The translations under genes were made by a program, and so were the position numbers. Of a DNA stretch of 64,000 bases, positions 15,348-16,577 are shown piece by piece. The notes beneath the pieces were generated by a model. The model had not been told where the DNA came from, ran no database searches, and saw only the letters and a list, made by a program, of their open reading frames with translations. How positions within the stretch are numbered: the first letter of the stretch is position 1; every line of letters begins with the position of its first letter. Source of the stretch: an uncultured bacterium (GTDB lineage: Bacteria > JACRDZ01); contig CAYWFU010000004.1 of the NCBI GenBank assembly GCA_964457585.1, positions 13,927 through 77,926 of the forward strand. Reading direction: 5' to 3'.

Positions 15348-16577
15348 TTATATATAATATCTCCAATAATTATCGATTTGTATTACTTTGTCAGCAAACT
15401 TTATATAATGAAGAATATGCTTTTCATAGTTTTGAAATTCTACTTCTGCATGCTGAAAAGCAGCATGGACAGTATAATTACGCTCAAATAAATCGGCTAT
15501 AAATCTTAGTTCTTTTGAATCAGTTGGTGATGCATATACGAAAAATCTTATTTGTGTCAAAGGCACAAGAAGAGGATGGAATGAGTGAATACCATCAAGA
15601 ATTACAATATCTGATAGTCCAACCGTTACCTGAGTCTCTTCATGCGTACCAGTATTGTGATTATACGGTGAATACATAATAATTTCCCCATTACTAACAT
15701 CTTTAATGCTTGTTTTAAGCTTTTCTATATCGTTAGCTTTAGGATCATAACCACTTAAATCACGTGCTTCACGCTCAGTCCTATTTAACATGAACGCATC
15801 AGTTTGAATAAGTCCTATCCTTAACGTCGAATTGATTTTAAATAACTCTTGTTGCAGATGTTGTGCTAGTGTTGTTTTACCTAAACCTGCAGCACCACAA
15901 ATAGCAACAAAAATTATTCGACTTGATAATGCGTATATCTTTAAAACATGATTTGCTAATTCCCTAATAACTTGAAAGTTGTCCGTCTTACGATTTTCTA
16001 AAAGATATTTTTTAAATTCTTGAATTCGATTTCCTTCTTCTATTATCCGTTGTAGGTTCTCTTTTATTTTACTACGAAAATCAAAAAAGTCACGACCAGC
16101 AATCTGTACTAAATTCGATGCTTCATGTGTTCGGTCTAGTATTTTGGGAATAATATTTTTTAATTCAAAGTATAAAAGACGAAGTCCCTTTTTATTGTCA
16201 GTGTATCCAATTGTGTATTCAGTTCTAACGTCGAAAGGCAAGTTATCTAATTTCTGGGAAATAATTATGGTTTTGTTACCTATTGCATGACTTATACCTA
16301 ATTCATAAAAAACATTAGGATTTTGTTGTGATATATCTGCTATAATTAAATCAGACTGTATAATTTCACGGATTATTTTGTCGGGAATATTTTTAGGAAT
16401 AGTATCATCATCAATTCTGTAACATTCAAGATTGAGTTCCTCAACTGAACTCTTAATCACAGTTTTATAAATATAATCATACTTTGGATCAAAACTCATA
16501 ATAACAAAACATTTTTTCTTTTTCATTTGAAACCGCTCCTTATGTTTTTTTATTACATGAATCTTGCACGAAAACAT
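15348..16577 (-). CDS. Fusion protein: N-terminal nucleoside 2-deoxyribosyltransferase-like (Rossmann/SLOG-like) domain plus C-terminal uridine-kinase/phosphoribulokinase-family P-loop kinase domain.
   Basis: N-terminal CFVIMSF...IIADISQQNPNVFYELGISHAIGNKTIIISQ. C-terminal VAICGAAGLGKTTLA (P-loop) followed by a UK/PRK-like core (TDAF...DIVILDGIHSF...RFFVYASPTD...RFIADLFERN). A likely internal start MKKKKCFVIMSF lies at 16526. Confidence 0.55.
   Translation of the reverse strand: MFSCKIHVIKKHKERFQMKKKKCFVIMSFDPKYDYIYKTVIKSSVEELNLECYRIDDDTIPKNIPDKIIREIIQSDLIIADISQQNPNVFYELGISHAIGNKTIIISQKLDNLPFDVRTEYTIGYTDNKKGLRLLYFELKNIIPKILDRTHEASNLVQIAGRDFFDFRSKIKENLQRIIEEGNRIQEFKKYLLENRKTDNFQVIRELANHVLKIYALSSRIIFVAICGAAGLGKTTLAQHLQQELFKINSTLRIGLIQTDAFMLNRTEREARDLSGYDPKANDIEKLKTSIKDVSNGEIIMYSPYNHNTGTHEETQVTVGLSDIVILDGIHSFHPLLVPLTQIRFFVYASPTDSKELRFIADLFERNYTVHAAFQHAEVEFQNYEKHILHYIKFADKVIQIDNYWRYYI

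Follow-up and report, generated by a model that had tools for sequence, protein, structure and literature searches.

What does a protein do that joins a domain of the nucleoside 2-deoxyribosyltransferase (NDT) and TIR kind to a small-molecule kinase? This question is raised by a gene on the minus strand of a 64,000-nucleotide (nt) stretch of DNA from an uncultured bacterium (contig CAYWFU010000004.1, positions 13,927 to 77,926), which is referred to here as the window. The original prediction, made from the sequence, had recognized a fusion of an NDT-like domain to a uridine-kinase-like domain and had leaned towards a role in anti-phage defence. We suggest, with confidence that is about evenly balanced, that the product of the gene is a two-enzyme, self-contained conflict protein, most likely directed against phage. 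In other words, a stand-alone role in defence is most likely for the fusion protein, rather than one in salvage. The observations behind this suggestion are the two folds and their conservation, the homology of the N-terminal domain to ThsI-like effectors, the fusion of related kinases to TIR domains, and the solitary and sporadic distribution of the gene with frequent defence neighbours. From them, we infer what the two domains catalyse and on which substrates, in which order the reactions proceed, and that the protein acts in defence.

A conserved fusion of two domains

The mechanically called open reading frame (ORF; 15348..16577, minus strand, 409 amino acids) exists as originally predicted, including every sequence motif quoted for it. 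The true start of the protein is probably the ATG at 16526, rather than 16577, because an AAGGAG sequence at 16536-16541 lies 9 nt upstream of this ATG (16524-16526), an identical (100%) database protein of 392 amino acids (P0001) begins at the corresponding Met, and nearly all homologues have a length of ~392 amino acids and likewise start at this Met. Residues are numbered from the 16526 Met. The features of the gene are as follows.

15348..16526, minus strand: coding sequence of the fusion protein, 392 amino acids; stop codon 15348-15350, ATG 16524-16526
16092..16526, minus strand: MilB/NDT/TIR-like N-glycosidase-type domain, residues 1-145 (N-domain), with a C-terminal extension carrying a conserved N138-x-x-Q141
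16302..16304, minus strand: Glu75 codon; this candidate catalytic glutamate is part of the invariant YELG motif
15927..16091, minus strand: helical linker, residues 146-200, with conserved F148-D149 and D182-N183 motifs
15351..15926, minus strand: P-loop kinase domain of the phosphoribulokinase (PRK)/uridine kinase superfamily, residues 201-392, assigned by Pfam PRK, fold and invariant residues
15870..15896, minus strand: Walker A motif (P-loop) GAAGLGKTT, residues 211-219, read directly from the sequence

In a confident AlphaFold2 (AF2) model built from 38 homologues (mean predicted local distance difference test score 91; predicted template modelling score (pTM) 0.64), residues 1-131 fold into an alpha/beta domain, which is followed in turn by a short extension (to ~145), two long linker helices (145-176 and 184-199) and a P-loop alpha/beta domain (~200-392). 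The N- and C-terminal halves are both strongly conserved in the 38 full-length homologues and, therefore, the fusion is real and under selection. N183 of the linker is invariant across the fusions, and the “DN” motif to which it belongs is also present in most TIR_2-kinase relatives; the “DN” helix is part of the kinase module.

The N-terminal domain and its link to Thoeris effectors

In three dimensions, the N-domain matches the flavodoxin-like N-glycosidase fold of the NDT/MilB/DNPH1/TIR superfamily. Its best structural match is MilB, a CMP hydrolase, below which rank TIR domains (~13), NDTs (12.9), TIR-STING (12.2), SARM1 (12.0) and Rcl/DNPH1 (11.6); Foldseek returned an NDT at 6.7e-6, TIR-STING at 8e-6 and BcmB at 1.8e-4. 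The protein itself scores below the threshold of the Pfam family Nuc_deoxyrib_tr (PF05014; 16.7 vs 28.8 bits), while relatives of the N-domain pass it (P0041, 43.8 bits; P0061, 34.2 bits; P0117, 31.3 bits) and, therefore, the NDT membership is transitive only and at the level of the superfamily. The N-domain is also matched by the TIR-effector model of PADLOC (“Effector TIR”; E 5.9e-9), and it has no match at E <= 1 to the canonical Pfam TIR models PF13676, PF01582, PF10137 and PF08937. Thus, the proposed NDT-like nature of this domain is borne out by folds and by NDT/TIR-type profiles, through its relatives and PADLOC.

The conservation expected of an active site was found as well. P70, N71, Y74, E75, G77, H80, P97, D99 and Y108 are invariant in 65 diverse relatives of the N-domain, and Glu75 is invariant also in the 38 fusions. 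In the AF2 model, Glu75 is at the start of helix 70-82, right after strand 60-64, which we take to be the site of the catalytic Glu in NDT, DNPH1 and TIR enzymes. Based on this topology, we infer that Glu75 would be equivalent to that catalytic residue.

Outside the fusion, the N-domain (motif NV[FY]YELGI) is very common and was identified at at least 572 loci in GTDB species genomes, at 126 loci in IMG/VR, on 85 plasmids and in 43 temperate phages. It occurs alone with a tail resembling the C-terminal domain of RpoA (~245 amino acids), fused to SIR2_2, PP2C or TY-Chap3, and fused to TPR-S. For instance, the Acinetobacter pittii plasmid pC54_003 encodes a protein of 407 amino acids in which the N-domain is followed by TPR-S (PF20308), and the gene of this protein lies between ThsB_TIR/TIR genes; the same pairing of an N-domain-TPR-S protein with ThsB/TIR is present on a Vibrio coralliilyticus plasmid. 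The N-domains of the pC54_003 protein and of the window protein are 36% identical (E 3e-22). Type VIII Thoeris, which consists of a TIR protein making cyclic ADP-ribose (ThsB) and the effector ThsI with a “CMP hydrolase” domain and TPR, was shown to protect against phage, and it was hypothesised that ThsI manipulates the nucleotide pool (10.64898/2025.12.03.692087). Judged by their domains, the Acinetobacter and Vibrio plasmid pairs match the ThsB and ThsI architecture. Because the N-domain of the window protein is homologous to these plasmid TPR-S proteins beside ThsB/TIR genes, we regard it as a ThsI-type effector domain, and this homology strengthens the earlier leaning towards defence.

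The likeness to ThsI is drawn via these plasmid proteins. ThsI and the window protein both have an N-terminal effector, a helical linker and a second domain at the C-terminus. However, this second domain is the TPR-S sensor in ThsI and a PRK/Udk-like kinase in the window protein, which has no TPR match in Pfam. Moreover, type VIII Thoeris has an adjacent ThsB, while none lies beside the window gene and a TIR-like (DUF4062) gene was found in only one (L004) of nine homologue contexts. With neither a TPR domain nor a ThsB neighbour, membership in type VIII Thoeris was rejected. Within the NDT superfamily, the branch of nucleoside-5'-monophosphate hydrolases includes the CMP N-glycosidases MilB and BcmB as well as DNPH1 (Rcl), which are 14-20% identical to the N-domain; these enzymes have biosynthetic or housekeeping functions and stand alone, whereas the N-domain is joined to a kinase. 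Finally, the TIR effectors of CBASS and Pycsar (Cap12 TIR-STING, TIR-SAVED, PycTIR) have a cyclic-nucleotide sensor as partner, while the window protein has a kinase and no Pfam TIR match; no cyclase gene is present near the window fusion.

An alternative is that the N-domain is a non-catalytic module for ligand binding or oligomerisation and that the kinase is the sole enzyme, e.g. a toxin kinase acting on an essential metabolite. TIR and SLOG-type folds are frequently scaffolds or sensors, and the kinase is invariant in its P-loop and catalytic residues, as would be expected under this alternative. However, the Glu of YELG and the polar residues surrounding it are invariant in the 65 relatives in the manner of an active site, and ThsI-like proteins have no other candidate for an enzymatic part than this domain. 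We therefore consider it very improbable that the N-domain lacks a catalytic function.

Further observations were made on N-domain proteins without a kinase. Relatives of ~216 amino acids consisting of the N-domain only are encoded by temperate phages of Staphylococcus, Streptococcus, Enterococcus, Lactobacillus and Dorea. In Staphylococcus phage SA13 (L185, 3998-4648), the gene is on the opposite strand within the replication module, similar to a moron or accessory gene. PHROG 3634, which lacks a functional annotation, spans the N-domain and the linker (E 5e-27). The commonest stand-alone form (~245 amino acids; P0043-P0066, alignment A2) ends in a helix-hairpin-helix domain with a weak likeness to the C-terminal domain of the RNA polymerase alpha subunit (E 0.02), which suggests that this form may be a nucleic-acid-binding version of the effector.

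A kinase clade shared with TIR domains

The original prediction described the C-terminal half as clearly uridine-kinase/phosphoribulokinase-like. At the level of the superfamily, this holds: Pfam PRK (PF00485) was passed with 57.5 bits against a cutoff of 22, covering profile positions 2-188 of 196 and residues 224-400 of the 409-amino-acid ORF, and Foldseek matched the kinase half to UCK2, pantothenate kinase (PanK) and PRK at ~1e-13. In a sequence search of the PDB, cyanobacterial PRK (6gve) was the best match (E 6e-14), followed by human UCK2 (5e-7), and in a family-profile search the kinase is almost equidistant from PRK (1.3e-22) and UCK2 (3.8e-20). By contrast, the assignment does not extend to either of the two enzymes. 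The NCBIfam equivalogs for Udk (TIGR00235/NF004018) were not reached (52.9 vs 220.3 and 57.8 vs 180), nor was the NCBIfam phosphoribulokinase model NF005655 (65.5 vs 236), and the match to PRK is limited to the N-terminal ~185 residues of an enzyme with a full length of ~330 amino acids. Thus, the kinase resembles Udk/UCK2 and PRK in having the fold of a P-loop metabolite kinase with its Walker A motif, lid Arg and catalytic Asp but, with 53-66 bits against cutoffs of 180-236, is in a separate clade. Separately, among solved structures, the best sequence match of the mixed family profile is the chain named “Uridine kinase P10” (210 amino acids; PDB 9y3v/9y4b/9y4w), at E 1.1e-5; with the kinase profile, this chain scores 7.3e-17.

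The hallmarks of active P-loop metabolite kinases are all present, i.e. Walker A of the form GxxGxGK[ST], an Asp after strand 2 and the lid Arg R349. The 38 fusions all retain G211, G216, K217, D243, R249, R252, H290, G293, G312, D345, R349 and Y351 in the kinase half. In alignments, D243 coincides with the Asp in the “QDSF” motif of UCK2 and in the “DDYH” motif of PRK; we take this position to be that of the catalytic Asp that activates the acceptor in UCK2. From these residues, we read the C-terminal domain as a catalytically competent kinase.

For the acceptor, the residues point away from a uridine kinase. We assume that Y112, F114 and H117 recognize the base in UCK2. In the UCK2 profile alignment, the Tyr is kept, while the position of F114 is occupied by the invariant His290 and that of H117 by the invariant Gly293; apart from the Tyr, the substrate-binding residues of uridine kinase, the conservation of which the original prediction had raised as a question, are, therefore, not preserved. 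The acceptor loop, YxHxTG, is instead PRK-like (YNHETG in PRK), and the invariant R249 and R252 correspond to the LDRKxRK segment of PRK. The lid “RD” arginine is missing from the kinase. We suggest that the kinase probably acts on something other than plain uridine or cytidine, and that this acceptor may itself carry a phosphate. Based on the NCBIfam cutoffs and the acceptor-loop residues, a true uridine kinase and a true PRK were both ruled out.

When the kinase half was used in an exhaustive HMMER scan, 127 representatives were identified at E <= 1e-10; a kinase-only word-index search gave 3 proteins. The clade is marked by a C-terminal YW(K/R)Y motif and the N-terminal “DN” helix. It includes stand-alone kinases of ~205-215 amino acids, which are likewise below the Udk and PRK cutoffs, and kinases joined to TIR_2 (P0143, 35.6 bits; P0171, 39.3 bits; P0167, 83.7 bits; P0206, 48.8 bits) or to a TIR domain of the CAP12/Pycsar type (P0152, 75.4 bits). 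G211, G216, K217, G312 and R349 are invariant in all classes of the clade, TIR fusions included, and conservation across the same classes is 90% or higher for D243, R249, H290 and G293. Because these residues are conserved even across the TIR-fused relatives, a real small-molecule kinase fits better than a bare NTP switch. Moreover, the occurrence of one kinase clade on three types of TIR-superfamily domain argues for functional coupling rather than chance fusion. In a tblastn search of 170 loci with proteins of the kinase clade, only the fusion genes themselves matched, and no stand-alone kinases were found beside N-domain-only genes.

Defence proteins of the dCTP deaminase/AvcD type combine a kinase-like P-loop domain and a deaminase in a single polypeptide that acts alone by nucleotide depletion. 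The window protein resembles this concept, while its partner domain would be an N-glycosidase instead of a deaminase and the order of the domains is different. A PADLOC dCTPase match (E 0.0033, residues 158-246) is too insignificant to claim homology.

In the mechanism that we propose, the N-domain would use Glu75 to cut the N-glycosidic bond of a 5'-phosphorylated nucleotide. Candidate substrates would be a nucleoside or deoxynucleoside monophosphate (NMP or dNMP), as for MilB and DNPH1, or the nicotinamide mononucleotide (NMN) moiety of NAD+, as for TIR domains, and cleavage would deplete a metabolite needed by the invader. The kinase would bind, and probably phosphorylate, a small molecule derived from a nucleotide. 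It could act as a gate that controls the glycosidase from the position of the sensor domain in relatives, or it could act in series with the glycosidase, either by making the NMP substrate or by phosphorylating the ribose-phosphate product. A gate is suggested because the kinase is placed where relatives carry TPR-S, STING, SAVED or cyclic-nucleotide-binding domains; a true kinase is favoured because the acceptor-site residues are conserved. A more far-reaching version, which we find quite unlikely, is an obligatory two-step depletion. In this version, the glycosidase would cut NAD+, NMN or NMP and the kinase would phosphorylate the released ribose-5-phosphate or ADP-ribose to a dead-end bisphosphate that phage pathways for the reconstitution of NAD+ and nucleotides would be unable to recycle; the kinase clade on NDT-like, TIR_2 and CAP12-type TIR domains would then represent a new class of immune enzymes that phosphorylate ribosyl products using ATP.

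Relatives in which the kinase is fused to TIR are also encoded in a conserved three-gene cluster together with a radical SAM/SPASM enzyme and a stand-alone PRK-family kinase. This cluster is found in Magnetococcus sp. DMHC-6 (L186, 8001-10911) and in ENA ERZ27252164 (L187, 4638-7855), and between the two sites the radical SAM/SPASM enzymes (ScmF-like, below cutoff) are 42% and the stand-alone kinases 47% identical. The cluster looks like an undescribed nucleotide-centred system and is present in none of the NDT-kinase loci.

As an alternative, the fusion protein could be a signal-maker, in which the TIR/NDT-like domain makes a nucleotide-derived messenger (e.g. an ADP-ribose derivative) that is phosphorylated by the kinase and read by an effector encoded elsewhere. 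The resemblance of the three-gene cluster, with its radical SAM/SPASM enzyme and second kinase of the same superfamily, to a small-molecule pathway would be in keeping with such a function, as would the DUF4062 TIR-like gene directly upstream of one fusion homologue and the production of Thoeris immune signals by TIR-superfamily domains (10.64898/2025.12.03.692087). However, the NDT-kinase genes are solitary and have no conserved partner able to read a signal, and the nearest characterised context of the N-domain is the effector side of Thoeris (ThsI) and not the signal-producing ThsB. We consider a signal-making function improbable.

Distribution, genomic context and proposed function of the fusion

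Full-length fusions form ~40 clusters among 5.8 billion protein clusters, with 37-58% identity and lengths of 356-530 amino acids (most 380-412). Their hosts belong to unrelated lineages, among them Verrucomicrobia and Dehalococcoidales, and on contig L001 the neighbours look archaeal (FrhB, ADP_PFK_GK, DUF1616). A scan of genomes with alignment A1 had no fusion among the matches listed, which were dominated by N-domain-only relatives, and a metagenome scan gave only 3 short fusion contigs. Phage-encoded counter-defence was also considered and rejected, because searches of IMG/VR, GenBank phages and PLSDB plasmids yielded N-domain relatives only and no full-length fusion.

The genomic context was compared at ten loci, i.e. 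the window and nine homologue loci. In all ten, the fusion gene is solitary, and no neighbouring gene is common to them; at the nine homologue loci, it has an intergenic gap on either side where the contig extends. Five of the ten are rich in defence or toxin-antitoxin genes. At L004, a TIR-like gene (DUF4062) lies immediately upstream of the fusion homologue. L006 has Mrr, MazE and an HsdM fragment in addition to a PDC-S15/FRG protein (E 3.5e-49), and L088 has a PD-Lambda-5_A-like gene with a type II methyltransferase. MazEF and an operon containing DCD are present at L090, and HEPN/MNT pairs with HicB at L003. Two other loci hint at mobile elements, as L005 has an integrase-like gene and L007 an ImmA/HTH pair.

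The TIR-like NADases of the “Swarozyc” system belong to the DUF4062 family (10.64898/2026.05.01.722283). At L004, in a metagenome-assembled genome of Verrucomicrobia (JACRJZ010000041.1), the DUF4062 gene (7180-7767) is on the same strand as the fusion homologue and preceded by an ORF of 77 amino acids. In this one of the ten contexts, the two genes could be a Thoeris-like pair.

Are these contexts compatible with metabolism instead? The fusion protein could be an accessory enzyme of nucleoside or nucleotide catabolism or salvage that feeds pentose metabolism without a phosphorylase. Either the kinase would make a 5'-monophosphate from a nucleoside and the MilB/DNPH1-like domain would split it into free base and ribose-5-phosphate, or the glycosidase would act on an NMP and the PRK-like kinase would turn ribose-5-phosphate into a bisphosphate. 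Consistent with this, the CMP hydrolase MilB is the best structural match and Rcl/DNPH1 matches too, the kinase is from a superfamily of metabolite kinases and PRK-like in the acceptor loop and two conserved arginines, and both active sites are conserved. Moreover, the context in the window is housekeeping and the fusion gene of L001 adjoins a sugar kinase of the ADP_PFK_GK family. However, a salvage, transport or pentose-pathway operon surrounds the fusion gene in none of the ten contexts, no neighbour is conserved, and the family is extremely rare and patchy. In addition, the N-domain has its kin among ThsI-like effectors, SIR2, PP2C and TPR fusions and prophage and plasmid genes, and the kinase clade is otherwise joined to true TIR domains, for which we know of no role in salvage. 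The original prediction had named pyrimidine-salvage operons around homologues as the finding that would speak for plain salvage; none was found, while half of the contexts contain defence or toxin-antitoxin genes. With no salvage operon in the ten contexts and a rare, patchy distribution, a plain pyrimidine-salvage enzyme was rejected as the leading explanation, and we regard a metabolic role as unlikely.

Several points weigh against a defence function. The neighbours in the window are housekeeping genes (type II secretion system C/D, a HEAT protein, ScpA/B, an M50 protease and LeuD/C/A), and the fusion locus has no shift or anomaly in GC content, with notable direct or inverted repeats absent from its flanks. 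Nothing defence-like was found in three of the ten contexts, and a sample of ten is too small to claim enrichment in defence islands statistically. The fold alone does not imply defence, because the best match, MilB, is biosynthetic, and the mechanism of the ThsI effector is itself a hypothesis in the preprint (10.64898/2025.12.03.692087). The pTM of the AF2 model makes the relative placement of the N-domain and kinase uncertain. Finally, the defence role of the fusion family is derived from comparison, and protection against phage is a prediction.

The immediate neighbours of the fusion gene in the window are ScpB and, directly downstream, the following remnant.

15076..15333, minus strand: truncated remnant of mpg (3-methyladenine DNA glycosylase), 85 amino acids

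The original prediction took this decayed gene as a sign of a variable spot. The fragment is real: it covers positions 2-74 of 181 of the Pur_DNA_glyco profile (E 1.7e-22), is below cutoff for all NCBIfam 3mg models, and its stop is only 113 bp from the next gene. The truncated mpg is, however, the only sign of a variable spot, as there is neither a GC shift nor flanking repeats. The remnant is a neighbour only and outside the system. A GC-rich hairpin (15060-15075) lies by it. No tRNA or other RNA family is present in the window and, in the absence of these as well as of a GC shift and notable flanking repeats, a recent mobile insertion was rejected. Elsewhere in the window, a protein of 582 amino acids encoded downstream of the mpg remnant (13214-14962, minus strand) has only weak, sub-threshold Pfam matches (COR-B, E 0.0025). 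A small island of unknown genes (22500-24311, plus strand) between leuA and a MacB-type transporter contains an ORF of 251 amino acids (22609-23364) without a Pfam match and an overlapping ORF of 72 amino acids, followed by a weak HTH_3 protein (23688-24311).

Taken singly, the metabolite kinase and the predicted effector N-glycosidase domain of the fusion protein are of known kinds. Their combination, as well as the kinase clade, appear to be undescribed; no description of an NDT/TIR-like domain fused to a kinase of the uridine kinase/PRK type was found in a literature search that was incomplete and gives absence of evidence only. In both bacterial and eukaryotic innate immunity, enzymes depleting nucleotides or NAD+ play a central part. 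In the window protein, a ThsI-type effector domain is paired with a kinase in place of a sensor. The presence of the same kinase clade on three TIR-superfamily domains points to a coupling of N-glycosidic cleavage with ATP-dependent phosphorylation, of which we found no description. As a single soluble polypeptide of 392 amino acids, the protein is convenient for biochemistry and could help to reveal the substrate of the effector and whether the kinase gates or extends its reaction.

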